This document shows positions 6,993-21,985 of a stretch of 64,000 nucleotides of DNA, in pieces. This DNA is from Promethearchaeota archaeon (GTDB taxonomy: Archaea > Asgardarchaeota > Lokiarchaeia > Sigyniarchaeales > SOKP01). The stretch's first letter is position 1; each line of letters begins with the position of its first letter. The DNA is taken from the NCBI GenBank assembly GCA_048938895.1, contig JBHLLU010000011.1, forward strand, positions 30,265-94,264. Reading direction: 5' to 3'. The notes beneath the pieces are model-generated. The model did not search any database and was not told the origin of the DNA. It saw only the letters and a list, made by a program, of their open reading frames with translations. Made by a program: the position numbers and the translations under genes.

Positions 6993-8321
6993 CTAATTTT
7001 TAGCACCACACATCGGGCAATTACTAGTATTTTGGAGAGTTGCGCCACATATTTTACATAGAGTAATTGTTGCTGCTCCTCTTTTTCTTGGAGGATTAAG
7101 AGAAGTAATCGAGACAGAGGGTTGAGTTTCTATTTGTACTGGTTTGCTGATTTCCGTTGCAAGATTATCTTTTTTTAACTTAATTTCAATTTCTTTACCA
7201 AAAAATCCACCAACCTTTACCTTTTTTGTAGGTTCTATATAAGGAGTAGGAGGTTTTAATTGATCAATACTAATTTCTTCATCAATTTGTTCCATTTCTA
7301 CTGATGATTCTTCCTCAAATGGTTCTTGTGCTTCCTCAACCTCTATTTCTTCTGGTTCTGTGGGAATATCTTCTTCTGTTTCAAGTTCAGGATATTCTTC
7401 TTCTAATTCTTCTTCATATACCATATTTACAAATTCTTCATCTAATTTCAATAATGTTTCGCATTGAGGACATCGGTATATATGCTTAAATCCGATATTC
7501 TTAGCAAGTGAATACTTTGCAGCACAACAACTGTGAAATTTAGCACTACAATTAAAACACTTATGGATTTCATCTGAATGAGCTTCACAAATGGGACATA
7601 ATTCCTGTTCACAAATTGTACATATTTCTTCGTCATCTGGTGAAAGACTTATAAGATCGACAGCTAAACGTTCGTAGAAAACCTTATCTTCTATTAATAT
7701 ATTTTCTATTTCATCGGTTTTAAGCACTTTAAATTCCTTTTTATTTTGAATTAATGAACCTAGAATATTTTGCAGGAGTTTTTCATCCTGACAATAGAAC
7801 ATACCTCCATGTGTTTCACTCGAAATTACCTTTAATTTAACATCATCCTCATAGAATTTCTCGTTTCCAACTCGAATAATATCAATAAAGGCGGAAAATT
7901 TCTTTGCTTTAATCAATAAATCATATAGGGCATTATAGTAATCTTCAGCTAATTTACTTGGGGTATCAGAAATTATTATTACTCGATAATTTTTCCTTGC
8001 ATCTCTACTTTTTCTAAAGATATAGGCCAATATTTCATACAATCCATTTTCCAAATAACTTTGTTCTGTTTCTCTTGTTTCCCAAGAATTATTGATTGTA
8101 TTTAATACTGCTTCTGAATCTTTTATATCGTATTCATTTACGGGATTCTCATTTTTTTGAAAGATAACTACACCATAAGAGCTTAAAGCATTAAATTTAT
8201 CTTTTTCTTTAATAAATGCACCGATAGCTTTCATCAAAGACTTCTTTTTAAGAAAATCTGATATGATATCTATAAAAAAGATAAATTCCTCCGAATTAAT
8301 TGAATCCGAACTGGTTAGCAT
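6993..8321 (-). CDS. vWA-like domain protein with central PHD/RING-like C4HC3 Cys cluster and C-terminal zinc ribbon (paralog 1)
   Basis: The N-terminal ~190 aa has a Rpn10/p44-style vWA pattern (NYRVIIISDTPS, KKFSAFIDIIRVGNE). Cys cluster: C242-x2-C-x9-C-x2-C-x4-H-x2-C-x17-C-x2-C287. Followed by an acidic linker, a GGFFGK motif and a C-terminal CKICG...CPMCG. Confidence 0.6.
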   Translation of the reverse strand: MLTSSDSINSEEFIFFIDIISDFLKKKSLMKAIGAFIKEKDKFNALSSYGVVIFQKNENPVNEYDIKDSEAVLNTINNSWETRETEQSYLENGLYEILAYIFRKSRDARKNYRVIIISDTPSKLAEDYYNALYDLLIKAKKFSAFIDIIRVGNEKFYEDDVKLKVISSETHGGMFYCQDEKLLQNILGSLIQNKKEFKVLKTDEIENILIEDKVFYERLAVDLISLSPDDEEICTICEQELCPICEAHSDEIHKCFNCSAKFHSCCAAKYSLAKNIGFKHIYRCPQCETLLKLDEEFVNMVYEEELEEEYPELETEEDIPTEPEEIEVEEAQEPFEEESSVEMEQIDEEISIDQLKPPTPYIEPTKKVKVGGFFGKEIEIKLKKDNLATEISKPVQIETQPSVSITSLNPPRKRGAATITLCKICGATLQNTSNCPMCGAKN

Positions 8322-8474
8322 CTTTATGCTTATTTACTATTTGAATCTATGAAAAATATCCTTAAATTATAAAAAAATAATATTAGAAGTTGTATTTATT
8401 TTTATTTATTATATTTCTGATTTAGGTAAAATTTCTATTTGCAATTATTACTGTCTAAATTTGTTAAAAAAACA

Positions 8475-9848
8475 TTATATTATCCTAAAACCACAATTTG
8501 GACATTTAGTTTCTTGGTTGGGATTTATTTGTGTTCCACATTGCTGACAAATCAAAAAATTAGATTGAGATCTCGTTCTAGAAGACCTTGTATTATTGGA
8601 GGAATTTAAAGTTAGAGTTTTTTCTTTTAATTTAGTGGGATTTGCGTTATTGGATTTGAAAGTAGCTTTAGTAGATATCCTCTCATACACAATTTTATCA
8701 TTTACTTTTTTAACAGTATATACTTTTCCAAAGAATCCACCTATTCTAACTGTTTTAATTGTTTCTCCCTCTGCGTTTACATGGTTACTAAGGGATGTTG
8801 AATCTAATTTCTTAATTTCTCTTTGAATGGGAGGAGCTACAGTTTTTAGGGCTGGTTTTGCTTTTTCAAGTCTTTTAGGAATCTGTTCTAGTACTTCTTT
8901 TACCATGAATTCTTTTACTGTTGTCACTTCTACTTCACCAGATACTTCAATAATTTCATCCTCATCAATCTTAAGGAGTACATCACATTTTTTATTAGGG
9001 CAACGAAAAATGTTAGGGATTCCAATATTATGGTTTATAGTGTAATTTGTAATACAACAATTATGAAAACTAGTATTACAATCCTCACAAACTAAGGGAA
9101 TATCATCAACATTGGTACAAACTGGGCATAGCTCCTCATTACAGAAATAACATACCAACTTTTCCATAGTTGATTCTGATTTTAATAAGGGTTTCGCTAA
9201 ATAGTTATAAAAGGAATAATCTTCTTTACTTATCTGAATCCGATTAGGTTGATCAGTAAAAGTACTAGTAAATTGTTTAGTTTTTACTAATTTTTTTATT
9301 GTATCATTGAATTCTTTTTTCTCATGAATGTAAAATATCCCACCCTTGGTATCGCTTGCTAACATATTCAATTTTACGTCATCACTAAAAAATCTTGTAT
9401 CGCCCTCAGAAATTCTTAGAATATCGATAAAAGTAGGGAAATTCTTTATTTTTGAAACAAGATTAAATAATGCTTCTTGATAGTCTTCTGATAAATCAGA
9501 GGGTGTATCTGTTATAACTATAATTCGATTAAATTTTGACTTCTTTCTTACTGTTTCTGCGATATAAGAAAAGATATAGAATAGCCCATTTTCAAAGAAA
9601 CTTTGCTTCCTTGGTCGAAATCTCCAATTTTCTTCAATAGAATTTGCAATTATTCCCGCATCTTTCTTATCTGTAATAAATATTGGATTGCCTTCTTCTT
9701 GGAAAATGAGAATTGAATAATGTCCCTTTAAGTTAACTTTATTTTTTTCATCAATGTAATATTTAATAGCTTTTATTATCTCTTTTTTTTTAAGTAAGTC
9801 TTTTGTTAGATCCAAGTAGAAATAGACATCTTCTTTCATATTCTTCAC
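8475..9848 (-). CDS. vWA-like domain protein with central PHD/RING-like C4HC3 Cys cluster and C-terminal zinc ribbon (paralog 2)
   Basis: Collinear with 6993..8321 (NRIIVITDTPS, NFPTFIDILRISEG). Cys cluster: C241-x2-C-x9-C-x2-C-x4-H-x2-C-x17-C-x4-C288. Also has GGFFGK and a C-terminal CQQCG...CPNCG. Confidence 0.6.
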   Translation of the reverse strand: MKNMKEDVYFYLDLTKDLLKKKEIIKAIKYYIDEKNKVNLKGHYSILIFQEEGNPIFITDKKDAGIIANSIEENWRFRPRKQSFFENGLFYIFSYIAETVRKKSKFNRIIVITDTPSDLSEDYQEALFNLVSKIKNFPTFIDILRISEGDTRFFSDDVKLNMLASDTKGGIFYIHEKKEFNDTIKKLVKTKQFTSTFTDQPNRIQISKEDYSFYNYLAKPLLKSESTMEKLVCYFCNEELCPVCTNVDDIPLVCEDCNTSFHNCCITNYTINHNIGIPNIFRCPNKKCDVLLKIDEDEIIEVSGEVEVTTVKEFMVKEVLEQIPKRLEKAKPALKTVAPPIQREIKKLDSTSLSNHVNAEGETIKTVRIGGFFGKVYTVKKVNDKIVYERISTKATFKSNNANPTKLKEKTLTLNSSNNTRSSRTRSQSNFLICQQCGTQINPNQETKCPNCGFRII

Positions 9849-9993
9849 TTTTCTTTGTAAAAAATCAGTAGAATACTATTATAAATCATAATAGTATAAC
9901 TTGTTTAAAATTTTTTAGAAAAATAAAAACCTTAAAATTTTTTAGAAAAGATTAAGAAAATTATAATATATGTGAAATGATGGTGATAAATGA

Positions 9994-11964
9994 ATGGAGA
10001 ATTTTTTAAAAAAATTACAGCTTTCTGATAATGCAATAAAAATATATACTGAATCCTTGGGTAAAGATCCACTTACGTTTTATGAATTATACTCAATAGT
10101 TCAAAATATTTCTCAAAACGCTTTTGAAGATGCCCTTACTCAATTAATAAATGGAGGGTTACTTATTCAATTGGTGCCAAAAAAGCAGGAGATTTTATTA
10201 CATTATTTGACTATCCCCCCAATTTTTCCCATAATAAATTATTACGAGAATATAAATGCAAATTTAATGGGTATAAAAGACTCAATTCAGAAGTTGATAA
10301 AACATACCATCAATCAAACGTTTCAGCAAAATGAAACAATTCAATTAGATACTATCATAGAATCATTTCAGGACATCAGAAAAGACATTGAAGAAGATAC
10401 TATTATTCAAAAGCAAGAGGTCGAAGATATTGTAAAAGGAATGGAAGAATTAAAAAGCTTAACTAAGGATATCTCTGAGTTAGACCAACAAATCAAAATC
10501 GTCACCCAAACGAATTTTGCTAATCTCATGAAAAAGATTTCGGGAATTAAGTCAGAAATAACCACTGAGATTAATAACCTTGAATTTAAGAAGCACAAGG
10601 AAGAAATAATATCTATTATAGATAATAATTTCAAAGAAAAATTAGATAGACTAGTTCAGGAATTTTCTACTGATTTACATGAAGTAATAGAAGAAAAATT
10701 TGAATCAACATCTAAGCCAATAGAAGATTTGATTAACGCAACTTTTCAGTATCGTGATGATTTTAAATTAATCCTTCTCAATTTGCTAAGTAATTTTGAA
10801 ACTAAAATGAATAAAATTCAAGAGACACTTAAAGAAAATAAAGATCTCCTTTCTGATGAATTGGGTAAACTTAAAATCAAATTACACGAGGACTTAAATC
10901 TGGTTGTTCAAAATTCAGTCGATCAAGTTTCAGGATTGAATAAACCTGTTGAAAATATTATGAGAGAATATTTTCAGGAAATGAGATCTTCTGATAAAAT
11001 AACAGTATCAGATATTTGGACTATTAATAGTCTTACTAAAATTAATGAAGAAATTCAGAAGTTCATTACCACTTCACAAGAAGAATTAATAATTATTGTA
11101 CCTCAACTTGAGAGTCATTTGGCTGCTGAACAATTTGAGAAAATTCCAAGAAGTTTAAAGGTAAGAGTTGCTTCTTCAGAGCCATATACCAATAGCAGTG
11201 TTAAAAATTTCCAATCTATCACAAATTTAATGTATAAAACTCTTGAAAATGAGAATTTAATCCTTTTAAAAGGGGATAATAATCAAATTGCTTTGGGTCT
11301 TATTCAAGAAAATGCACAAGATCCATTAAATGATTTCATTGGAATTGCTAGTAATTTTCCTCCAATTGTTGAATTGCTAAGTCCAATCATTCAACATTTG
11401 TGGGAAGAAGCCTATTCTGATTCATTTTATGGTTCACAAAAAGTTCAAACACAAGGAGTTAAAAAAATAGAATCAAAAACTTACCAGAAAATAAAGCCAA
11501 TCACATCTACTCAAATCCAATCCGAAAGGATAGAATATAAGCAAAAAGATATTCTGAAAGACCAACCTCAAGAAAGGAAAGAAGAAATTCATCCTAAACC
11601 TCAAAAAATACCTTCTATTTTACCTGATGCTCAAGAACAAGTTGATGCAATAAAACAAAAATTACAGGCAAAGCTAGATTTTGTTTCTTCTTCCAAAAGA
11701 AAAAAGGGAGATGAAGCAGGGCTTTTAATTAACGCTGCTTTTAATAATTTGATTAATAAATTAAATAATATTAAAGGGGAGGAGTTCAGTGTGGAGCTCC
11801 AAAAGATTGCTGATTTAGTTCTTGAAAAAAGGGGTTTTTCAGTTACCTTACATAAATTAAGAAGTTTCATTAATCAGTATAGATTTAGTGATCTACTTTT
11901 AAGTGAAAGTGATAAAAAACAAATCATTGGAAATATTGAAAATTGGAAGGATAAGTTAGTATGA
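9994..11964 (+). CDS. TrmB-like winged-helix protein with very long coiled-coil insert
   Basis: The N-terminus LQLSDNAIKIYTESLGKDPLTFYELYSI resembles the TrmB HTH. It is followed by ~300 aa of heptad-rich, E/K/I/L-rich sequence. A C-terminal globular region (ELIIIVPQLESHL...LKVRVASSEP) is shared with ORF 44737..45537. Confidence 0.5.
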   Translation: MENFLKKLQLSDNAIKIYTESLGKDPLTFYELYSIVQNISQNAFEDALTQLINGGLLIQLVPKKQEILLHYLTIPPIFPIINYYENINANLMGIKDSIQKLIKHTINQTFQQNETIQLDTIIESFQDIRKDIEEDTIIQKQEVEDIVKGMEELKSLTKDISELDQQIKIVTQTNFANLMKKISGIKSEITTEINNLEFKKHKEEIISIIDNNFKEKLDRLVQEFSTDLHEVIEEKFESTSKPIEDLINATFQYRDDFKLILLNLLSNFETKMNKIQETLKENKDLLSDELGKLKIKLHEDLNLVVQNSVDQVSGLNKPVENIMREYFQEMRSSDKITVSDIWTINSLTKINEEIQKFITTSQEELIIIVPQLESHLAAEQFEKIPRSLKVRVASSEPYTNSSVKNFQSITNLMYKTLENENLILLKGDNNQIALGLIQENAQDPLNDFIGIASNFPPIVELLSPIIQHLWEEAYSDSFYGSQKVQTQGVKKIESKTYQKIKPITSTQIQSERIEYKQKDILKDQPQERKEEIHPKPQKIPSILPDAQEQVDAIKQKLQAKLDFVSSSKRKKGDEAGLLINAAFNNLINKLNNIKGEEFSVELQKIADLVLEKRGFSVTLHKLRSFINQYRFSDLLLSESDKKQIIGNIENWKDKLV

Positions 11965-11968
11965 GGTA

Positions 11969-12733
11969 TTATTTTTCTTTTTCCCTTGTACCTACGAAAA
12001 ATCCACGGATTATAAATCCAAGTGAAAAAAGAAACGAAAATAAGAAGAAAACGGAGGAGATCATCGAGATTAGTGAGCTCGGTTCCAAAACTCCAATAAT
12101 TCCAAAAATCGGGCATAATGGTGCAATTATTAGAAAAATAATATAAGTTGTTTTATCTTTTTCTCCGAAACTGATATATACAGTAATATTAAACCAAGCA
12201 ATCAGGATCATAATAAAAGGTATTAAATATGAAGATAATTCTAGAAAAGGATGTGTTATTCCTCCCTTGGCGTAAGCATAAAAATAATTTGCATAAAAAT
12301 ATACAATTATTAGTAGAGCACTAAGAGGTGTTGGAACTCCAGTATATCCTGGAACATCTGATAAATTAAATCTTGCTAATCTTAATATCGCACCCAATGC
12401 AAAACAAACGGAACCAATTATCAAAATAATATCAAATATACTTCCAGTTTTAAAACTCTGGTATGTTAAAACAGCAGGGGCAATACCAAAGGTTAATGAA
12501 TCGCTTAATGAATCCAATTCTTTTCCCATCTCATTCATAGTATTTGTTTTACGAGCAATATATCCATCAATCATGTCGGTTCCTGCTGATATTGATACCA
12601 AAAAAAATCCTAAAGAAAGTGTAGCACGTGCACCGATACACGCACAAACTAGTGCTATCATTCCAAGACAAGTACCAACCAGAGTTATGTAATCTTTTAA
12701 TTTTAAAAGATGTGGAATCTTTATAGTTGACAT
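11969..12733 (-). CDS. CDP-alcohol phosphatidyltransferase (archaetidylserine synthase-like)
   Basis: Polytopic membrane protein with the family motif D-G-x2-A-R-x8-G-x3-D-x3-D, seen as DMIDGYIARKTNTMNEMGKELDSLSD. Confidence 0.8.
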   Translation of the reverse strand: MSTIKIPHLLKLKDYITLVGTCLGMIALVCACIGARATLSLGFFLVSISAGTDMIDGYIARKTNTMNEMGKELDSLSDSLTFGIAPAVLTYQSFKTGSIFDIILIIGSVCFALGAILRLARFNLSDVPGYTGVPTPLSALLIIVYFYANYFYAYAKGGITHPFLELSSYLIPFIMILIAWFNITVYISFGEKDKTTYIIFLIIAPLCPIFGIIGVLEPSSLISMISSVFFLFSFLFSLGFIIRGFFVGTREKEK

Positions 12734-12959
12734 TTCCAGTTTCTATATATAATATTAATAATAATTAAACCTTATTCAATTAAAACGTTATGATAAACGA
12801 GAAAAATCCTCATTAAAGAGCAAATATAAGGAAATTCCTAGAAATTATTATGCTAAATAAAATTATAAATATCGGTCTAATTATAACTTAAATTTAAAAG
12901 AAAATTTTATTATCTAAACCCTAAAAAATAATAAAAAAATTAGAAAGGTAAATAATAGA

Positions 12960-13673
12960 ATGGTTTTTTGCGCAACCTGTGGGGCTGAAATCAAAGATCC
13001 AGAAATGCAGAATTTCTGCGAAAAATGTGGTTCACCTGTTTCAGCTACACTTAGAAAAAAAGAAATAGTCTCAATACCATCTACAGCCGGAGGAATAACA
13101 ACCTTAGGCTTTGAACCTTATGATCGTCCAGGTGGATTGTTTGATATTAACCGGAACTATTATATCCTGAAAGAAAAATATTGGGATTGGGGTTCTGGCG
13201 ACATTTTAGACGAGAATAATAAGATTATAGGTAGAATGAATAGGGTCATCTTTAGCATAAGACGTAGAGTTGAGTTAATCGAATTAGATGGCACTATTGC
13301 TGCTACTATTCACTCCAAGATTGTATCGGCTCGTGGGGCACAAGATCTCAAAGATCCGCATGGTAACATGATTGCACGAATTAAAAAGAAAATAACGTCT
13401 GTTATCCGACCGAAATTTTTCTTAGAAGACATAAATGGAACAAGATATTTTGAAGCTCAAGGGAAATTTATGGGGTGGAGTTACAAGGTGACTGATATGC
13501 AAGGGAACCTAATTGCAGAAATCGAGAAAGCTGACAAATGGAGAGATGTTTTTCTTGGTGGTTTATTGGATTTTAAAGATACATATGCATTGAGAATATT
13601 AGACAATGAAACAGATAGAAGAATCTTATTAGGATTTGTACTATCGATTGATAATGTGCTTCATGATATGTAG
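12960..13673 (+). CDS. N-terminal double zinc ribbon fused to a LURP-one-related/tubby-like (DUF567) domain
   Basis: CATCGAEIKDPEMQNFCEKCGSPV at the N-terminus. The remainder (YYILKEKYWDWG...RRVELIELDG...FFLEDINGTRYFEAQGKF.GWSYKV) has the repetitive beta pattern of the LOR/scramblase-like family. Confidence 0.5.
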   Translation: MVFCATCGAEIKDPEMQNFCEKCGSPVSATLRKKEIVSIPSTAGGITTLGFEPYDRPGGLFDINRNYYILKEKYWDWGSGDILDENNKIIGRMNRVIFSIRRRVELIELDGTIAATIHSKIVSARGAQDLKDPHGNMIARIKKKITSVIRPKFFLEDINGTRYFEAQGKFMGWSYKVTDMQGNLIAEIEKADKWRDVFLGGLLDFKDTYALRILDNETDRRILLGFVLSIDNVLHDM

Positions 13674-13852
13674 TTGTTTAAAGATGGCTTTTTAAACTTC
13701 TCATTTTATTTTTTCGCTAAATTTTTATAAACGTAATTTATATTTTTTTTAAATTAAGTCCATTTGAAAAGAAATTTCAAAAAGGATTATAAAATTTTCT
13801 TAGATGAATTAAACTTTTAGCTAAAAACAAATGATTCTCATATTGAAAGAAA

Positions 13853-14941
13853 ATGACTGAATATGATACTTTCATGGTATATGAACTGGATGATTCTGGG
13901 GAAAAGAATAGAATAAGTATCACTGAAGAGGAATTACATTCAAATTTACATCCAGAGCAAGTTCTAGTTATAGTACGTGAAGATTTAAGGAGAATATTTA
14001 TTTGGAAAGGCCCAAAATCCCCTGTACGAAAAAGATTTATTAGTTCTAGAGTTGCCCAAGAACTCCAGGATGATTTGAGAAAAAGTGCGGCCATGCATCG
14101 ATGCAAAATCGTTTCTGTAGATGCTGGTGATGAACCTTCTGAATTTCTAAATGCATTTCAATTAGACTCTATGGAAGTAACTGAAAGATTAGCCGATATG
14201 AGATATGTACGAAATATTGAGAAAGAGAGGATAAGTGAAGCGGTTATAAAAGATGTTGTTCCAGAAACAAAAGAAGAATATGTTTCTCCTACTTTTCAAG
14301 ATTCCTCTACAAACGTTGTCTCATCTCCACATTCTAAACCTGCCATTACTCCAACAGCAAGCCCTCAAAATCAGTATCCTAAGCATCGGTTACCTACAGG
14401 AGGTTTATCAAAGGATGATTATGAAAAGATTAAAGAGAAAATTTTAAAAACAGAGATTTCAGATAGTTATAAAAGACTTAACTTAATTTCAGGTCATACT
14501 CTATTTGCGGCTGTTTCCAAAGTTGCTAAAGTATTTGGGGAAGAAGTCGAAGAAACTGAATGGGAACCTGTCAAAAAAGTACCTAAAGAAGTGATTGAAT
14601 TAGATAATCATCTCTTAAGAATATATTTTAATAAAGATATAGGTATAGTTGAAGCAGTGGAAATTCTAGAAAAATCTGGTCAGCCAACGAGTATTAAAAA
14701 AAAATTAAGCTCTGAATCGACATTAACACCAATGCCTGCCAAGCCTAATTCAATGGAAATTACAGCAGTAGATTTTAACTCCCTGACAGTAAAAGATCTT
14801 AAAAAGTATGCTGAAGAAAAAAATATAGATTTACCTGCAAATCTACGAAAAGCTGAAATAATAGAAATTTTAGAAAAATCAAAAAAGAATAATCCTGGTG
14901 GTAGACGACAATTACCAAAGATTCCTAGTAAAGATGATTAA
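13853..14941 (+). CDS. Gelsolin-domain protein with C-terminal HeH (SAP/Rho-N-like) motif
   Basis: The N-terminal ~105 aa reads VLVIVREDLRRIFIWKGPKSPVRKRFISSRVAQEL...CKIVSVDAGDEPSEFLNAFQ. This follows the gelsolin-repeat pattern (FILD-x-G-x-I-x-W-x-G...EG-x-EP-x-F). The C-terminal LTVKDLKKYAEEKNIDLPANLRKAEIIEILEK is a helix-extension-helix motif. Confidence 0.65.
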   Translation: MTEYDTFMVYELDDSGEKNRISITEEELHSNLHPEQVLVIVREDLRRIFIWKGPKSPVRKRFISSRVAQELQDDLRKSAAMHRCKIVSVDAGDEPSEFLNAFQLDSMEVTERLADMRYVRNIEKERISEAVIKDVVPETKEEYVSPTFQDSSTNVVSSPHSKPAITPTASPQNQYPKHRLPTGGLSKDDYEKIKEKILKTEISDSYKRLNLISGHTLFAAVSKVAKVFGEEVEETEWEPVKKVPKEVIELDNHLLRIYFNKDIGIVEAVEILEKSGQPTSIKKKLSSESTLTPMPAKPNSMEITAVDFNSLTVKDLKKYAEEKNIDLPANLRKAEIIEILEKSKKNNPGGRRQLPKIPSKDD

Positions 14942-14961
14942 TTTATTTTAGCCAATATTCA

Positions 14962-15561
14962 TTAATCAGAAGGATTAGTATTATTTTCTTCTGAAACCTC
15001 ATCTACTCCTTGATCTTTTTCATCTCCTCTACTTCCAGGCTTTCCTTCATCCATTTTCTGTGGTTTTGTCTTTTTTTTAATCTTTTTTAATCCCTCTATT
15101 GCTTCTTTTCTTACAATTGCACTCTTATCTTTAAGTGCTTTTGCTAATGCTTCTAAACTATATGGATGGTGGAGGTCACCTAATTCATCACACGCTTCTC
15201 TTCTTACATTCTCATCTGGATCATTTAGGAGTACATAGGTTAGGACGCCTAATACTTTTGTATCCCCAAAATCTCCTAAAGTGTCAACTGCTTCTTTTCT
15301 TACTTCACTGTCAGGATCAGTGACTGCTGTGATTGCTAATTGTTTTGAAATCTCGTCAGAATTACCTATAGGTTCAATAGCACTCAGATCTACTCCACAA
15401 TACTTACAGAAATTATGAGTAATTTTAATTGCTTTTCCACACGCAGGACATACTCTTTGTGTGTTAAAATCAATAAAAGATTTATTAGGATATGGAGCCG
15501 AATCTCTTATTTTATAAGGATTTTGTTGAGGATTAAGTTTTAAATTCCTATCTCTTCGCAT
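14962..15561 (-). CDS. Zinc-ribbon + HEAT-repeat (PBS-lyase type) protein
   Basis: CPACGKAIKITHNFCKYCGVDL is followed by three HEAT-like repeats: DPDSEVRKEAVDTLGDFGD, DPDENVRREACDELGDL and DKSAIVRKEAIEGL. Confidence 0.7.
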   Translation of the reverse strand: MRRDRNLKLNPQQNPYKIRDSAPYPNKSFIDFNTQRVCPACGKAIKITHNFCKYCGVDLSAIEPIGNSDEISKQLAITAVTDPDSEVRKEAVDTLGDFGDTKVLGVLTYVLLNDPDENVRREACDELGDLHHPYSLEALAKALKDKSAIVRKEAIEGLKKIKKKTKPQKMDEGKPGSRGDEKDQGVDEVSEENNTNPSD

Positions 15562-15777
15562 TTTAATAAAATTAAATAGTTATTTTTTAGGAATTATAAT
15601 GAAATACATCTTTTTAATTTTAATTTAAATGAAATTTTTAGAGTAATAAGTAAATTAATTTGATTATTTAGTTCTAAAATTTCACTAATTATTATTTAAA
15701 AGAATTAATATAGTAATTTGAAAATCCATATCCAATGTTAAAAAATAGAAAAAAGATTATGATTTTGTTTTTAATAT

Positions 15778-16839
15778 TTAAGCTATTGTTATTTCTTTTG
15801 ATAAATACACATCTTGCACTGCGTTGAGAATTTTAATACCCTCAGGAGTAGGTTTTTTAAAAGCTTTACGACCAAGGATCAATCCCATACCTCCTGAACG
15901 CTTATTTATAACAGCTGCTTTTACTGCATCTTGAAAATCATTCCCTCCAGATTCACCACCAGAATTAATAAGACCCACTCTTCCCATAAAGCAATTAGCA
16001 ACTTGGTAACGATTCCAGTCAATTTCGTTGTCTGGAGCAAGTTTTTCATAAACAATTTTATCAGTTTTACCAAATTGTAGATCCAAAAAACCTCTGTTAC
16101 AAGTAGAAAGTTTTTGTTTTACAATATCAGCTTCAATTGTTACTCCAAGATAATTACCCTGGCTTTCTAAATCATTTGAAGTATGATAATCAACACCATC
16201 TTTAATGAATTCTTCTTTATTCCTTAAGTAGCACCAAAGAATGCAGACTAATCCCAACTCGTGAGCATATCTAAAGGATTCACTAATTTCTTGAATTTGT
16301 CGTCGTGATTCATGAGAACCGAAATAAATTGTGGCTCCTACTGCTGATGCTCCCATGTCCCACGCCTGATCAACACTCGCAAATAAAGTTTGATCAGAAA
16401 TTTCTGGTTTTGTTAGCAATTCATTATGATTGATCTTTACAATAAAGGGAATTTTATGAGCATACCTTCTTGAAACAGAACCAAGTATACCAAGAGTAGA
16501 TGCGACCGCATTACACCCTCCATTGATTGCAAGCTTTATTATATTTTCTGGATCAAAATATGAAGGATTTACAGCGAAACTTGCTGAAGCCGTATGTTCA
16601 ACACCTTGATCAACTGGCAAAATTGAAAGATATCCTGTCCCTGCTAATCTCCCAGTCTGATTAAATAATCGATCCATGTTATTCAAGACGAGATTATTCC
16701 TATCTGAATGTTCTAGGACTCGTTCAATAAAATCTGGACCTGGTTGATGTATGATTTCCTTCGAAATTCCTTTACAAGTATGATTTAAAAGATCTTCTGC
16801 TTCAGAACCCAAAAGGTTCTTAATCTCATTATAATCCAT
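15778..16839 (-). CDS. fbaB: Class I fructose-bisphosphate aldolase, FbaB/DhnA type
   Basis: Long collinear matches to the FbaB family as I recall it: [80 protein letters not shown], and the C-terminal ITIA. Confidence 0.9.
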
Positions 16840-16929
16840 TTTTATCTCATTCCTTTTACTAGAATAATTTTAAAGAAGAATAAGATACCGAAAATAAAAT
16901 AGTTATTGCATTAATTAAATTAAGAATAG

Positions 16930-17214
16930 TTACAAGGAATTATTATCGACGTCAAAAAATTCTTTTAATAAGTCTGATAAAAGATTATAGTTATTTTGAT
17001 TCAAATTTGAATTACTGCTTTCTAGTTTAAGAGAGATTTTTCTTGTTTCTTTTCCAATAGAGTGTAATTTTATGATTAATTTTTTGTTTTGGTTTTTCAG
17101 TTTACACTCCTGGGAAGAATCTTTATTCCATAAAGAGTCAAGCTTATCTGCAAATTTCTCTTTATTTTTGTAAGGTTCAATTTTTGTTCCATTCAATATT
17201 TTCGGTTTTTCCAC
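16930..17214 (-). CDS. Hypothetical small protein
   Basis: A 94-aa K/N-rich ORF in an otherwise unoccupied gap. No motif recognised; it could be spurious in AT-rich DNA. Confidence 0.3.
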   Translation of the reverse strand: MEKPKILNGTKIEPYKNKEKFADKLDSLWNKDSSQECKLKNQNKKLIIKLHSIGKETRKISLKLESSNSNLNQNNYNLLSDLLKEFFDVDNNSL

Positions 17215-17335
17215 ATGTAGACATCTCTCAAAAAATCTGTGTTATTTTCAATATATAAGACTATATAATTCTATGTTTAAAAACACCCTGAATGCATTAA
17301 GAAAAACTTAACTTCCATGGATTTTTTTTTTATTT

Positions 17336-17668
17336 ATGCCTGACGAATTTGATTTTAAGAGCTACAAATCTATGGAAGAGTATAGTAAAACCGTAGAAGG
17401 TACAAAATATTTACATTCTTTATATCTTAAAGCAGTAAATCACCCAATTCGTCGAAAAATTCTCATGTTAGTTAATAAAACTAAAAAGATTTCAAAAGAA
17501 GATCTATTAGAAGCTTTAATAGACTCGGGATTAATAAATGACGAAGCTTCATTGAACTATAATATGGATTATTTAATTAAAGCGTTTTGTGTTAAAAAAG
17601 TAGAAGAGAACAATATTATATTTTTTGAAATCACTCAAAGTGGTCAAGTAGTGGAATACTTAGAATAA
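17336..17668 (+). CDS. ArsR-like winged-helix protein
   Basis: LKAVNHPIRRKILMLVNKTKKISKEDLLEAL resembles the ArsR/SmtB-type HTH core. Confidence 0.5.
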   Translation: MPDEFDFKSYKSMEEYSKTVEGTKYLHSLYLKAVNHPIRRKILMLVNKTKKISKEDLLEALIDSGLINDEASLNYNMDYLIKAFCVKKVEENNIIFFEITQSGQVVEYLE

Positions 17669-17681
17669 AACTTCTTTTTTA

Positions 17682-18128
17682 TTATTTTTCAACTAATCTT
17701 TTGTAGCAATCACAACATGGTATACCAAAATTAACATTAAAGTTCTTTAGTTTTTTATTCTTTAGATTCATGAAATTAATCAGGGTTTCAATTAGATTCT
17801 TCTTATTATCATCAAAAAAAAGTTGTTTCAAGTTAAAATAATGATTAAATCCCTTACAAACGGGACAAATAGAATAGAAATTAATGAATTTCTTAAATTT
17901 TTGTCTCTCTTCTGAGTTTAAAGCTTCTAATTTGAAATCAGGATTATTTTCAAATATAGATTTTAAATTTTCTAATTCATTAATCATTGCATCTCTTAGA
18001 AAATTCGAACTATAATTTCCCTGAGTAGTTGATTCAGTTGAAATTATATCTTGAGTTGTAAATCTATCAAAATATTCTATAGCTTCATTAAAAAATAATA
18101 AATTCTTATTTTGATTCTTCTCGTTCAT
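17682..18128 (-). CDS. Hypothetical protein with CPVC...CCDC metal-binding pairs
   Basis: 148-aa ORF. The Cys pairs CPVCKG and PCCDC suggest a zinc site. No family recognised. Confidence 0.4.
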   Translation of the reverse strand: MNEKNQNKNLLFFNEAIEYFDRFTTQDIISTESTTQGNYSSNFLRDAMINELENLKSIFENNPDFKLEALNSEERQKFKKFINFYSICPVCKGFNHYFNLKQLFFDDNKKNLIETLINFMNLKNKKLKNFNVNFGIPCCDCYKRLVEK

Positions 18129-18179
18129 ATACTTAACTACTACAATTATATTATTTTAAATGTTTTTTTAAAAGAATAT

Positions 18180-19466
18180 TTATAGAAATTTGAAGAATTT
18201 TTCATTTTTATTAAAGATGTCATCTTCATTTTTATCTGTTAACCTTCTAAAGTCAATAATTTTTGAGGGTGCAAAATATTCAAAGTCAAATTCAACCTCA
18301 TCCCCAACATTTCTTCCAGGTATTGGCATTAAACGAGCAGTTAATGGTTTGTTTAATCTTAATGATATTGTACACAAATCTAATAATATATAAAATAATT
18401 CTTTCTCAGTTATATCTCCAGGTAGTGGAACAACATCTAATCCAGCACCACACATTGTCGCATATAATAATAGGGAATCCAAGTTAAATTTATTTTCCGA
18501 TAGTCTTTTGGATAATATGTAATCTTCTAGAACGGGTTGGAAAAAGCCTGAAAATCCAATCACTTTTTCTTTATCCATTGGTATTGAATTTTTTATGAGA
18601 GCAACCCCTGTAAGTGTTCCAATAGCCCCAAAATATTCAATGCCTAGTTTTTCTATCGCCTTTCCTATACTCTTGTTTTCTTCAGGGAAAGGTGCGGGAG
18701 AAAAGTCTAGTCCCTTAAACTCAACATCAAAGATTCTACCAAATTTCTCACAAATTTGAGTAATATCAACATATATTTGATTAAACCTTGATAATAAATT
18801 AAATTGGGTTTCTTTTATACTATTGGACTGTTCTATTACCTCAATTACCTCATCTGCCATTTCTAAAGCAATAGAAAATGCAGGTTTATCAGAAAAATGG
18901 TATGCTGCTGGAAAAAATGGAAAATTTGGGCCTACATTAGCAGAAACACAAAAATTTAGATTTTTGAATGGATCAGGCTCTGAAAGTTGTTTTATTATTT
19001 TTGCACCAGATTTTAAAGCTGAAATATTTAATCCATCTCGAGTACTAGCCACGGGTAAAGAAGTAAAGAAACCATCTGTACTTTTAACAAAATTTGGCAC
19101 TTCATTTAATAATAGTCTTTCAAAGATTCCTAGCTCTGGGAATTGATGAGTAAGCATCATACAACATGCAAAATAGTCAAATCCATAATCATTAAACATA
19201 TCTTGTAAAAACTTTAATTGGTTTTTTATGTCAACTAAAGTTTCTTTTAAATTCTTTTCATAAAACAATTTATTATCATAACTAAAAAGAGGTTGAGAGC
19301 AAAACCGCTTGGTTTGAACTTCTATTCCTATATTTTCAAATGCACTTATTAATTCATTATTTAAATCAGAAAAAATTTTAAGATTATCTTGCATAAAAGA
19401 TAAAATAGTTTCACTTGCATAAAGATAAGGAATTATATTCCCATTAGTTATTGCTCTTATTCGCAT
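18180..19466 (-). CDS. DUF711 / UPF0210 family protein
   Basis: C-terminal pattern LDFSPAPFPEE...GFSGFFQPVLED...CGAGLDVVPLPGD...ARLMPIPGRNVGDEVEF matches the conserved UPF0210 blocks. N-terminal MRIRAIT. Confidence 0.7.
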   Translation of the reverse strand: MRIRAITNGNIIPYLYASETILSFMQDNLKIFSDLNNELISAFENIGIEVQTKRFCSQPLFSYDNKLFYEKNLKETLVDIKNQLKFLQDMFNDYGFDYFACCMMLTHQFPELGIFERLLLNEVPNFVKSTDGFFTSLPVASTRDGLNISALKSGAKIIKQLSEPDPFKNLNFCVSANVGPNFPFFPAAYHFSDKPAFSIALEMADEVIEVIEQSNSIKETQFNLLSRFNQIYVDITQICEKFGRIFDVEFKGLDFSPAPFPEENKSIGKAIEKLGIEYFGAIGTLTGVALIKNSIPMDKEKVIGFSGFFQPVLEDYILSKRLSENKFNLDSLLLYATMCGAGLDVVPLPGDITEKELFYILLDLCTISLRLNKPLTARLMPIPGRNVGDEVEFDFEYFAPSKIIDFRRLTDKNEDDIFNKNEKFFKFL

Positions 19467-19594
19467 TTTTAGTTATTTATAAAAATATATTCTTTAATAA
19501 GAATTATAAGAGAAATAGTAATAAAAAATTAATATTTCTAACTAAAGAAATTTTAATTAATTTCACTTATTATTTAATCAAATTATTGCTGTGG

Positions 19595-21985
19595 TTAAAT
19601 TTCATCCAATTTGGCTTTGTCTTTCAATTGCTCTTTTGTTGATAGAGATTTTGAATATTCATTGGGTTTAATAGGACCAATGTTATCTAATTCTTTCGTA
19701 AATTCTTTGATATTATTAGCATACTTTTCTCCCTCTCCAGCAGCTACACTTATAATTTTTACTCTTTTCTCATTTATTCCTGCTTCAATCAAAACTTCTT
19801 TAATACTTTCATATCGAGACTCTGCTTTAATGAATCCTTCTTGGTAATGGCAATCTTGTGGATAACAGCCTGCTATTAAGACGCCATCAGCACCATAAAA
19901 AAAACTCTCAAAAACCAGAGAAGGATTAAGCATCGCAGTACACATAACATGAATTGCCCTTACATTTGTAGGATAAGTTAATTTACTTGTTCCCGCAAGA
20001 TCAGCACCGGTATATGAGCACCAATTACATAGGAATGCAATTATTAATGGAGACTCACTTTTTTGTTTCAGTATAGATTGAATTTGAGCCGAAATTTGGG
20101 CATTTGTGAATCCAGGTATATATAAAGCTTCAGAATGACACATCGCAGCACATGCACCGCATCCTGTACAATTAGCTTGTGTGATTTTTAATTGATTTTC
20201 TTTAATTTTTAGCGCATTAAACATACAAATGTTTTCACATAATCTACATAAATCGCATCCCTCTGAATTAAAATAAACAATGTGGGGATCTATCTCAACT
20301 TTTCCTTTTGAAATAAGGGAAATAGTCTTGGCTGCAGCACTTTCAGCTTGAGCGATACTTGAGGGTATGTCTTTTGGTCCTTGTATAGCTCCAGCTAGAA
20401 ATATTCCATTTACAGATGTTTCAGAAGGCCTAACCTTAAGATGTTTCTCTAATAAGAAACCATTTGGATCCTGCGAGATGTTTAAAATTTTGCTCAATTC
20501 ATCTGTATTTTCTGCAGGTTCAATACCTACTGCTAAGATGACCAAATCTGTTTTGTTCTCAAATAATTTGTTTTCGATAGTGTCTTCTCCGCGCACTATT
20601 AATTCTTTAGTTGTGTCACTCTTTAAAACAGCAGAAATATTGCTTTTAATAAACCTAATCCCAAAAGTTTCACGAGCTCTGTTATAAAATTCTTCACAAT
20701 TTTTACCCATTGCTCTAATATCATTATAATAAATATTGATTAACACATCCGGATGTTCTTTTTTGATTAGTACGGCCTGTTTTATTGCTACATTACAGCA
20801 AACTTGACTACAATACTCATGATGTATTTGTTTATTACGAGAACCTACACATAAAATGAATGAGACCTTTTCAGGAGGTTTACCACTTGATGGAATCATA
20901 ATTTTTCCATGAGTAGGTCCATCATTGTTAAGAATTCTTTCCATTTGCATTGTAGTTATGATGTCTGGATTTTTGAGATAATTATATTCTCCTAATAATG
21001 AAGGATCAAATATTTTTAGTCCAGTTGCAACAATTATTGATCCTACTTGAATATCTATAATCTCTGGTTTTTGATCGAAATCGATGGCATCCCTATCACA
21101 TGCTTGAGCACACACTTTACACCCAATACAATATTCCTCTAATATGTTAGGAAATAATGGTATTGCTTGAGGATAGGGCACATCAATGGCTTTTCTAGGA
21201 AAAAAAGTATCTTCTACATCAATTGGACAGACATCTCTACAAATATCAAAACATCCTACACAATCTTCTTCTTTTATGAAACGAGGAAGTTTCTTAATTT
21301 TAATTTCAAAATTTCCCACATAGCCATTAACTTCTTCAACTTGTGAGTATGTATGTAATTCGATGTTTGGATGATCTTTAATTTCTGACATCAAGGGGCC
21401 TAATATACATATAGAACAATCTAATGTGGGGAATGTTTTGTCGAAGAGAGCCATATGACCTCCAATAGTGGGTTCTCTTTCCACTAAATATACTTTATAT
21501 CCTGCGTCAGCAATAACTAAAGCTGCTTTGATCCCTGCAATTCCACCCCCGATTATTAGCGTTGAGGGATTAATTTCAGAATAGTGAATAGTTAATGGTT
21601 CTAATAATTTTACTCTTTCTATTGCCATTATAATCTGATCTATTGCTTTTTTAGTAGCTTTTTCAGGTTCATCGCTGTGAACCCATGAATTTTGTTCTCG
21701 AATATTTGCAAATGAGATTAAAAAACGATTGATTCCTGCTTTTTCGATGGTTTTTCGAAATAATAATCCATGAAGTTTAAAAGAACAAGCAGCTATTACG
21801 ACTCTATCAATTTTTTCTCCTTTTATTTCTTCAGTAACCTTATTTAATCCCGATTCAGAGCATAAATATTGATCTTTTAATACATGAACATCAGGATATT
21901 TACTAAAATACTCAATAAGTTGCTCATTATTTATAGTTCCACTAATATTTTTACCGCAATCGCATAAAAATAATCCAATTTTCAA
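19595..21985 (-). CDS. hdrA: Heterodisulfide reductase subunit A fused to MvhD-like domain
   Basis: FAD motif LIIGGGIAGIKAAL. Several 4Fe-4S CxxCxxCxxxCP motifs (CVGCFDICRDVCP, CIGCKVCAQACD, CDLCRLCENIC, CTGCGACAAMC). C-terminal IIAFLCNWCSYTGADLAG...VMCTAMLNP...GADGVLIAGCYPQDCHY is the MvhD domain. Confidence 0.85.
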   Translation of the reverse strand: MKIGLFLCDCGKNISGTINNEQLIEYFSKYPDVHVLKDQYLCSESGLNKVTEEIKGEKIDRVVIAACSFKLHGLLFRKTIEKAGINRFLISFANIREQNSWVHSDEPEKATKKAIDQIIMAIERVKLLEPLTIHYSEINPSTLIIGGGIAGIKAALVIADAGYKVYLVEREPTIGGHMALFDKTFPTLDCSICILGPLMSEIKDHPNIELHTYSQVEEVNGYVGNFEIKIKKLPRFIKEEDCVGCFDICRDVCPIDVEDTFFPRKAIDVPYPQAIPLFPNILEEYCIGCKVCAQACDRDAIDFDQKPEIIDIQVGSIIVATGLKIFDPSLLGEYNYLKNPDIITTMQMERILNNDGPTHGKIMIPSSGKPPEKVSFILCVGSRNKQIHHEYCSQVCCNVAIKQAVLIKKEHPDVLINIYYNDIRAMGKNCEEFYNRARETFGIRFIKSNISAVLKSDTTKELIVRGEDTIENKLFENKTDLVILAVGIEPAENTDELSKILNISQDPNGFLLEKHLKVRPSETSVNGIFLAGAIQGPKDIPSSIAQAESAAAKTISLISKGKVEIDPHIVYFNSEGCDLCRLCENICMFNALKIKENQLKITQANCTGCGACAAMCHSEALYIPGFTNAQISAQIQSILKQKSESPLIIAFLCNWCSYTGADLAGTSKLTYPTNVRAIHVMCTAMLNPSLVFESFFYGADGVLIAGCYPQDCHYQEGFIKAESRYESIKEVLIEAGINEKRVKIISVAAGEGEKYANNIKEFTKELDNIGPIKPNEYSKSLSTKEQLKDKAKLDEI

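Follow-up and report, generated by a model that had tools for sequence, protein, structure and literature searches.

A 1DGelX-type gelsolin protein of a Loki-type Asgard archaeon with a HeH motif inserted between domain X and a conserved C-terminal motif

The gene and its features

The DNA analyzed here (the window) is a stretch of 64,000 nucleotides with a G+C content of about 30%, taken from the 4.65 Mb, 174-contig assembly of a Loki-type Asgard archaeon. The gene at 13853-14941 on its forward strand encodes a protein of 362 amino acids (aa) that carries both a gelsolin domain and a HeH (SAP/Rho_N-like) motif. An earlier note, made from the sequence of the window, had read this gene as a single gelsolin repeat fused to a C-terminal HeH motif. 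Both modules are real and belong to one conserved gene, but the protein is not a bare repeat followed by HeH; with good confidence we assign it to the published 1DGelX class, and the HeH motif is a lineage-specific insert between domain X of that class and a C-terminal short motif.

The open reading frame (ORF) runs intact from ATG to stop, as the earlier note had read it, and its translation gives 362 aa plus the stop codon with zero internal stops. Homologs of the protein amount to 679 matches in total, the full-length ones at 44-83% identity, and conservation over the full length extends to more than 100 independent assemblies. Since the N-terminus MTEY(E/D)TFMVYELDDSGE is kept in an alignment of 59 full-length homologs, the start codon is right. 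An overlapping ORF on the minus strand (13777-14106) was taken as spurious, with a counterpart in only 1 of 80 loci. The possibility that two genes had been joined here through an assembly or annotation error, which the earlier note had raised against itself, can be given practically no credence: we found no point in its support, the frame holds no internal stop, an identical full-length layout recurs in more than 100 proteins from independent assemblies and sources, and conserved synteny surrounds a single gene. The 59-homolog alignment gives the order of the parts as gelsolin domain, extension, EEYFSPALQD, Pro/Ser/Thr linker, 90-aa block, a second linker with TPMPxKPxSM, HeH and tail. The features, with the evidence for each, are as follows (AF2, AlphaFold 2).

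13853-14941, forward strand: whole gene, a 1DGelX-type gelsolin protein with a HeH insert (ORF list and translation)
13853-14167, forward strand: gelsolin/cofilin-type domain, aa 1-105 (AF2, Foldseek, profile against the PDB, conservation in orthologs)
14162-14227, forward strand: post-gelsolin extension, aa 104-125, consensus LESMEVTERLxDMRYVRNIERE (near-invariant; disordered in AF2)
14273-14302, forward strand: short linear motif EEY(F/V)SP(A/T)(L/F)QD, aa 141-150 (in 117 of 120 relatives)
14408-14677, forward strand: domain X, aa 186-275, predicted as one helix followed by a five-stranded antiparallel sheet (AF2, conservation)
14723-14755, forward strand: short linear motif (S/T)LTPMPxKPxSM, aa 291-301, in the second disordered linker (kept in HeH and lysine-repeat forms)
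14771-14887, forward strand: HeH (SAP/Rho_N-like) motif, aa 307-345 (Pfam on the segment, AF2, invariant residues)
14903-14938, forward strand: C-terminal short motif RRQLPKIPSKDD, aa 351-362, core RxLxxIP (invariant residues in orthologs)

The N-terminal gelsolin domain and its extension

The AF2 model of the whole protein, built from the 59-sequence alignment, shows strands and a long helix (residues 60-76) in the N-terminal domain, at a predicted local distance difference test (pLDDT) value of about 78. In a Foldseek comparison, the best match of the model was actin-bound Thor ProGel (7c2f_B; E 5.6e-6, template modeling score (TM) 0.80, root-mean-square deviation 2.3 Å over 95 columns), followed by adseverin, villin, gelsolin and 2DGel, all with a probability of 1.00. 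Searching the PDB sequences with phmmer returned Thor 2DGel3 (E 2e-5) and Thor ProGel (E 3e-5), and a family profile of aa 1-132, made from 48 family members and the in-genome paralogs, reached Loki 2DGel 7whg (2.4e-11), ProGel 7c2f (5.5e-11), adseverin (1.9e-8) and gelsolin (1.3e-7). The gelsolin repeat described in the earlier note was thus borne out by both structure and profile (TM 0.80, E 2e-11), the comparison with Asgard ProGel and 2DGel that it had proposed gave the gelsolin fold with 7c2f_B on top and the 2DGels also matched, and the strings quoted there for aa ~30-105 were located at aa 37-103. The gelsolin hidden Markov model (HMM) matches the protein once, at aa 1-105, as expected of a single N-terminal domain, and mean column identity among orthologs is 86% in this domain.

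Homology to the Asgard proteins of known structure, ProGel (7c2f) and 2DGel (7c2g, 7c2h, 7whf and 7whg), is therefore clear (E 2e-11 to 5e-7), with ProGel the best structural match. ProGel differs in consisting of the bare domain, and 2DGel in possessing a second gelsolin domain and calcium sites, whereas in the second folded domain of the present protein no gelsolin repeat was detectable. The long helix starts with VRKRF where 2DGel has VDEKT, the acidic calcium ligands being replaced; since these ligands are exchanged, we expect the calcium site to be absent, as in the Thor one-domain proteins.

Gelsolin-like folds also occur in Sec23/24, and these domains were among the weaker Foldseek matches of the model (E ~1e-3). 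Together with a Pfam Gelsolin score under the cut-off, this would fit a domain of the Sec23/24 kind that binds no actin, in a protein that is a chromatin factor or another factor unrelated to actin. We regard such a protein as very unlikely, because the top matches in both sequence and structure are the actin-bound Asgard ProGel and 2DGel and then adseverin, villin and gelsolin, and because proteins with the gelsolin-plus-X layout (Gel+X) have a published action on actin.

Directly behind the gelsolin fold lies the extension, in which S106, M107, D115, Y118, R120 and N121 are invariant or near-invariant and for which the AF2 model has a pLDDT below 50. It is shared with an in-genome paralog that lacks domain X (L003, described below), and is probably a part of the actin-binding module that folds upon binding. 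We also compared the extension with the LRRV element of 2DGel, which resembles WH2; when the profile is aligned with 7whg, the alignment reaches the extension, and no clear match to that element was seen. The linker that follows (aa 126-185), with the EEY(F/V)SP motif embedded in it, is rich in Pro, Ser and Thr, variable and disordered (pLDDT ~31-36).

Domain X and the 1DGelX class

Behind the gelsolin domain the earlier note had seen a region of about 200 aa, mixed and rich in P, S, T and E. This region is partly disordered, as described, but it also holds a conserved folded domain at aa 186-275. When these 90 aa were modelled alone, AF2 gave a mean pLDDT of 91.3 and a predicted TM of 0.80, so that the predicted fold is a confident and apparently new alpha+beta fold. 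No convincing relative was found in the PDB, either by Foldseek (best E 0.41) or in a VIA-wide comparison (best Z 3.8), in which the top rows, comprising Cache, PAS, GAF and roadblock-like domains, were all tied. In the ESM Atlas the domain matched Asgard gelsolin-linked clusters only, one of them a fragment automatically named gelsolin-like. A profile of the domain run against 1.84 billion representatives found 139 clusters; when these were typed with local HMMs, 78 had an N-terminal gelsolin domain and the remainder were mostly short fragments. The same profile matched in 222 of 268 Asgard genomes at least 85% complete, non-Loki classes included, and a few families were without it. In full-length proteins the domain stands behind a single gelsolin domain, and in some members it is duplicated. 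The possibility that it represents a degenerate second gelsolin repeat was rejected: hhalign of the block against Gel profiles gave a probability of 0.15%, and gelsolin chains were absent from its structural matches, though the two may be very remotely related.

Three Asgard gelsolin layouts have been defined, namely ProGel, 2DGel and 1DGelX (Akil et al. 2020, PNAS, PMC7444086), of which 1DGelX was reported from all Asgard phyla (PMC7444086). Because the 90-aa block was seen exclusively in Asgard archaea, and there behind single gelsolin domains, we read it as the published domain X and the gene as a 1DGelX. This assignment, made with good confidence, was drawn from architecture and distribution. 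In common with Thor 1DGelX, the protein has an N-terminal gelsolin/cofilin domain, a linker and then a non-gelsolin domain, read here as X, is restricted to Asgard archaea and lacks the calcium ligands. The two descriptions differ with respect to X itself: a coiled coil had been predicted for it, and its expression alone failed (PMC7444086), while AF2 here confidently predicts a helix and a five-stranded sheet.

Gel+X proteins from ten genomes, belonging to nine other GTDB families outside the class of the window, consist of gelsolin domain, Pro-rich linker, X, a short amphipathic helix and a Lys-rich end. Unlike the present protein, these non-Loki forms are only ~290-330 aa long and end in the amphipathic helix (LxDLxxFFK) and the Lys-rich end, without HeH and without the RxLxxIP tail.

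The HeH motif and its replacement by lysine repeats

Pfam analysis of aa 300-350 alone gave 30.7 bits for HeH (cut-off 28.9) and 29.0 bits for Rho_N (cut-off 24.9), while the whole protein scored 26.4 bits for HeH, slightly under the cut-off. Of the 30 HeH segments that were aligned, 28 from family members, one from the in-genome paralog and one from an ScpA-like protein, all matched HeH and Rho_N and 24 also matched SAP. AF2 placed helices at 313-322 and 333-345 with an extended link between them (pLDDT ~88), and V313, K314, L316 and K333 are invariant. The HeH motif named in the earlier note therefore holds, on the segment scores and on the helix-linker-helix model, and the string quoted there for nt 14783-14878 (LTVKDLKK...EILEK) is the exact translation of aa 311-342. 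The motif resembles the HeH, SAP, LEM-like and Rho_N motifs (Pfam PF12949, PF02037 and PF07498) in its helix-extended-helix build of ~35 aa with conserved Lys residues, and differs from them in that its host here is a protein of the cytoskeleton. Among solved structures, the closest match in sequence is only 2out, the C-terminus of a Mu-like prophage protein (E 0.004). The short motif (S/T)LTPMPxKPxSM in the linker before it was not found elsewhere in the genome's own ORF set.

The same type of HeH occurs on four further proteins of the genome, namely the B subunit of topoisomerase VI (Topo VI-B; 1089 aa, motif at aa 940-970; G000:C51:2653-5919, L115), the N-terminus of a 340-aa ScpA kleisin-like protein that also matches Pfam Ish1 (G000:C138, L006:1465-2484), a 319-aa protein with a SWIM-like CxC...CxH signature (G000:C28:34183-35139, L116) and a Gel+X paralog on contig C34. 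The spread of the module looks lineage-specific: several ORFs carry it in 4 of 5 tested genera of the window's family, and the HeH profile had zero matches in four sister-family genomes.

Across the 120 closest cluster representatives, 93 have the layout Gel-X-HeH-tail, so that the fusion does recur in related genomes, as the earlier note had proposed to survey. In a further 16 (Gel-X-tail) the HeH is replaced by tandem (A/T)PKKKP repeats, one has a second X domain in its place, and the rest are truncated entries. Behind domain X the lysine-repeat forms contain 13-33 Lys/Arg vs 2-7 Asp/Glu, and at least one of them is a positional ortholog located in the same conserved gene block (contig matched to L044). 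On a FastTree tree of the Gel+X columns only, 4 changes between HeH and repeats are needed, of which branches with support of at least 95 force at least 2 to 3.

In a GTDB-based search, full-length matches with E < 1e-100 were confined to the window's own GTDB family, where 132 of 134 genomes have one. Sister families in the order matched at 1e-10 to 1e-87 through the Gel+X portion only, and other classes at ~1e-6 to 1e-19, as we read it via the gelsolin domain. Many matches from metagenome-assembled genomes carry NCBI labels (Hod-, Hermod-, Thor-, Odin- and Heimdallarchaeota) that conflict with this placement in one family and would point to a broad spread of the full-length form; since the GTDB-based search puts all strong full-length matches in that family, the NCBI phylum labels were not used for distribution. 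Orthologs from four sister-family genomes, three of them closed (6.04, 4.36 and 4.32 Mb), retain the extension, an EYWSP motif, X, a Lys-rich stretch and a KRxL(K/N)xIP tail, and have no HeH.

HeH, SAP and Rho_N motifs are known to bind nucleic acid and are not known to bind actin. The ligand of the HeH is likely DNA or another polyanion, as suggested by two comparative lines: the motif has been swapped repeatedly for H1-like lysine/proline repeats, and the same HeH occurs on Topo VI-B and ScpA, which are DNA-handling proteins. The basic C-terminal region could instead be a second binder of the actin filament, or of polyanions in general (RNA or an acidic membrane), and so serve bundling, severing or membrane tethering. 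Thor 1DGelX and ProGel do bundle filaments, and an element binding the side of F-actin is expected C-terminally (PMC7444086); the region behind X carries a net positive charge (+5), and the lysine-repeat forms of it are strongly basic. We nevertheless hold this to be possible but rather unlikely, given that the motif is of a kind known to bind nucleic acid and that its further carriers in the genome are enzymes acting on DNA or proteins of chromatin (Topo VI-B and ScpA).

The C-terminal tail

The earlier note had ended its description on a basic tail. That tail terminates in a near-invariant short motif that the note had missed, which in the window's family reads RR(Q/K/N)LP(K/E)IP(S/K)xD(D), with L354, P355 and P358 invariant in 59 orthologs. 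We treat it as a genuine short linear motif, and it was not found on another protein of the genome. Outside the window's family the first proline is not kept: sister-family tails have LKAIP, LKKIP or LNTIP, and the wider Gel+X set has LKPIP, LQPIP or LRKIP. Because this proline is lost, the conserved core is RxLxxIP and not phi-P-x-phi-P.

The distinction bears on a reading of the C-terminal part as a protein-recruitment platform, in which RRQLPKIP would be a MIM2-type ligand of the MIT domain of Vps4, or of another reader of proline motifs, so that actin would be linked to ESCRT and the HeH would be accessory. The core of the ESCRT-III MIM2 is phi-P-x-phi-P, in which x is charged, and LPKIP (aa 354-358) fits the corresponding regular expression (PMC8970359). 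The genome encodes a Vps4 with a MIT domain, and its own Snf7/ESCRT-III protein carries a conserved ...GG(A/T)MPEIPSDDLQYIP element, with MPEIPSDD resembling the tail sequences LPKIPSKDD and LPEIPKSD. A stricter pattern shared by the two is found only in the tail protein and Snf7 among 3668 ORFs, but it was composed after viewing both. The core expression itself is common, with matches in 120 of the 3668 own ORFs, 5 of these at the C-terminus. The tail is likewise similar to SH3 ligands of class I (RxLPxxP) and to the WH2 element LKKV. It also has none of the additional prolines that a full MIM2 contains, and its host protein is not an ESCRT protein. In ESCRT-III the prolines are essential, and the MIM2 identity is further weakened in that the first of them is not conserved here, either in sister-family orthologs (LKAIP, LKKIP, LNTIP) or in the wider Gel+X set (LKPIP). 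We consider recruitment of this kind doubtful.

The Snf7/ESCRT-III gene (L009:1393-2043; G000:C75, minus strand) is the only one that Pfam found at E <= 0.01, and it lies apart from Vps4 (contig C95). Its element GG(A/T/Q)MP(E/Q/D)(I/V)P(S/A)DDLQYIP is strongly conserved before the last helix.

Paralogs, actins and gene neighborhood

The gelsolin set of the genome comprises three Gel+X genes (the present gene and two paralogs), a paralog with a gelsolin and a helical domain, a ProGel and a 2DGel, and the genome also encodes five actin-family proteins (best E 5e-125). Three 1DGelX genes were likewise counted in Lokiarchaeum GC14_75 (PMC9433394). The third Gel+X paralog (G000:C85:7042-7746, 279 aa), which is without HeH, lies ~4.5 kb from an actin-family gene (G000:C85:12245-13345). 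The gelsolin-helical paralog L003:1495-2703 (G000:C44; 403 aa) has the gelsolin domain and the DMRYVRN extension at 56% identity over aa 3-129, with X, HeH and tail replaced by a helical domain of ~270 aa that has no Pfam match. The 2DGel (G000:C140:3617-4612, minus strand; 332 aa) ends in a zinc-ribbon-like CPxCG...CGNCG motif after an acidic linker.

The GelX gene itself is part of a block of ~12 genes (6993-21628) that runs, in order, vWA-RING pair, TrmB-coiled-coil protein, CDP-alcohol phosphatidyltransferase, LOR-like zinc-ribbon protein, GelX, HEAT zinc-ribbon protein, FbaB, winged helix-turn-helix protein, two ORFs and HdrA. Individual members recur in about 41-69 of the 80 species genomes, with order and orientation retained even where GelX identity is ~45%. 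Because the block mixes unrelated functions, such as the housekeeping genes FbaB and HdrA, no functional link was drawn from the neighbors, and an operon-based function was set aside. The GelX gene probably has its own promoter, since it is preceded by a T-rich run and by TATA-like boxes. Directly upstream (12960-13673), the protein with a zinc ribbon and a LURP-one-related/tubby/scramblase-like domain (Pfam LOR, E 1.2e-8) is on the same strand as GelX in 68 of 80 loci and is often duplicated.

Discussion

Taken on its sequence, the protein is, on balance, probably an actin-severing or actin-capping 1DGelX with an anchor for a polyanion, most likely DNA. Thor 1DGelX binds rabbit actin with a Kd of 7.7 uM and nucleates, severs and sequesters actin independently of Ca2+ (PMC7444086). 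In the same manner, the gelsolin domain and the extension would bind the barbed-face cleft of the organism's own actin (Lokiactin), capping or severing without Ca2+ control. A filament side-binding element has been proposed within the C-terminal extension of 1DGelX (PMC7444086), and X may add a second contact, most likely to the filament side, in the role of gelsolin G2, by which a weak ProGel-like binder would become a severing protein. The HeH, or the APKKKP lysine repeats in its place, would anchor the C-terminal end through flexible linkers of ~30-80 aa to a polyanion, most likely chromosomal DNA; anchored in this way, the protein would tie the nucleoid to actin filaments or to their turnover, and the RxLxxIP tail would dock a partner.

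Several points weigh against this reading. The Pfam Gelsolin family (PF00626) scores 13.4 bits on the protein, under the 21-bit cut-off. The identity of the 90-aa block with the published X comes from architecture and distribution, and the actin role proposed for X from analogy and a published hypothesis, X being a domain without a structural relative. The sister-family orthologs are without HeH, and therefore the HeH is dispensable for core function. Finally, RNA, acidic lipids or the actin filament, itself a polyanion, are equally plausible ligands of the HeH and the lysine repeats.

The logic proposed here for the actin-binding part, a G1-like cleft contact combined with the filament-side contact required for severing, is that of the eukaryotic gelsolin, villin and adseverin, whose domains are homologous; those proteins differ in having 3-6 gelsolin repeats and in being controlled by Ca2+ and PIP2. 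The additional module of villin is a headpiece, and none of these three is known to carry a HeH. A parallel in design is found in the eukaryotic transcription cofactors MRTF and myocardin, which combine an actin-binding module and a DNA-associated HeH/SAP-type motif in one polypeptide and so offer a precedent for linking the state of actin with DNA; their actin-binding module is RPEL rather than gelsolin, and homology lies only in the small HeH motif. The novelty that the earlier note had claimed for the fusion is therefore qualified: in the literature searched we found no link between an Asgard gelsolin and a HeH, SAP or LEM motif, but the RPEL-plus-SAP proteins are a precedent for the general arrangement. 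A literature search on Asgard archaea and gelsolin with HeH or nucleoid returned nothing relevant, and the papers naming 1DGelX in that literature are without HeH, SAP, LEM or a fold of X. The NCBI pipeline names some orthologs HeH/LEM or Rho termination factor N-terminal domain-containing proteins, and among the source names listed for the matches none contains gelsolin. A gelsolin domain as the actin-binding companion of a SAP/HeH motif appears to be undescribed so far.

In its boldest form, the proposal would make this gelsolin-type regulator, in one family of Lokiarchaeia, a bridge between Lokiactin filaments and the chromosome through HeH or, interchangeably, H1-like lysine repeats, with the HeH spread in parallel to ScpA and Topo VI-B and the tail recruiting Vps4/ESCRT. 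As a whole we think this improbable. If true, the bridge would set a precedent among prokaryotes for positioning or segregating chromosomes with the help of actin, or for reading the state of actin at DNA in the manner of MRTF.

Experiments support a link between actin regulation in archaea and in eukaryotes in few cases, of which the Asgard gelsolins are one, and within these X was a black box. The present analysis gives X a predicted fold, a profile by which it can be tracked Asgard-wide, and four conserved short elements around it. It also describes a HeH-bearing subtype of the known 1DGelX, in which one lineage has added a HeH of the DNA type that is repeatedly interchangeable with lysine repeats. 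If the HeH does not bind DNA, the protein would still be a well-defined 1DGelX subtype for biochemistry; if it does, the protein would be a candidate for actin-nucleoid coupling, bearing on how chromosome and cytoskeleton were linked before eukaryotes.

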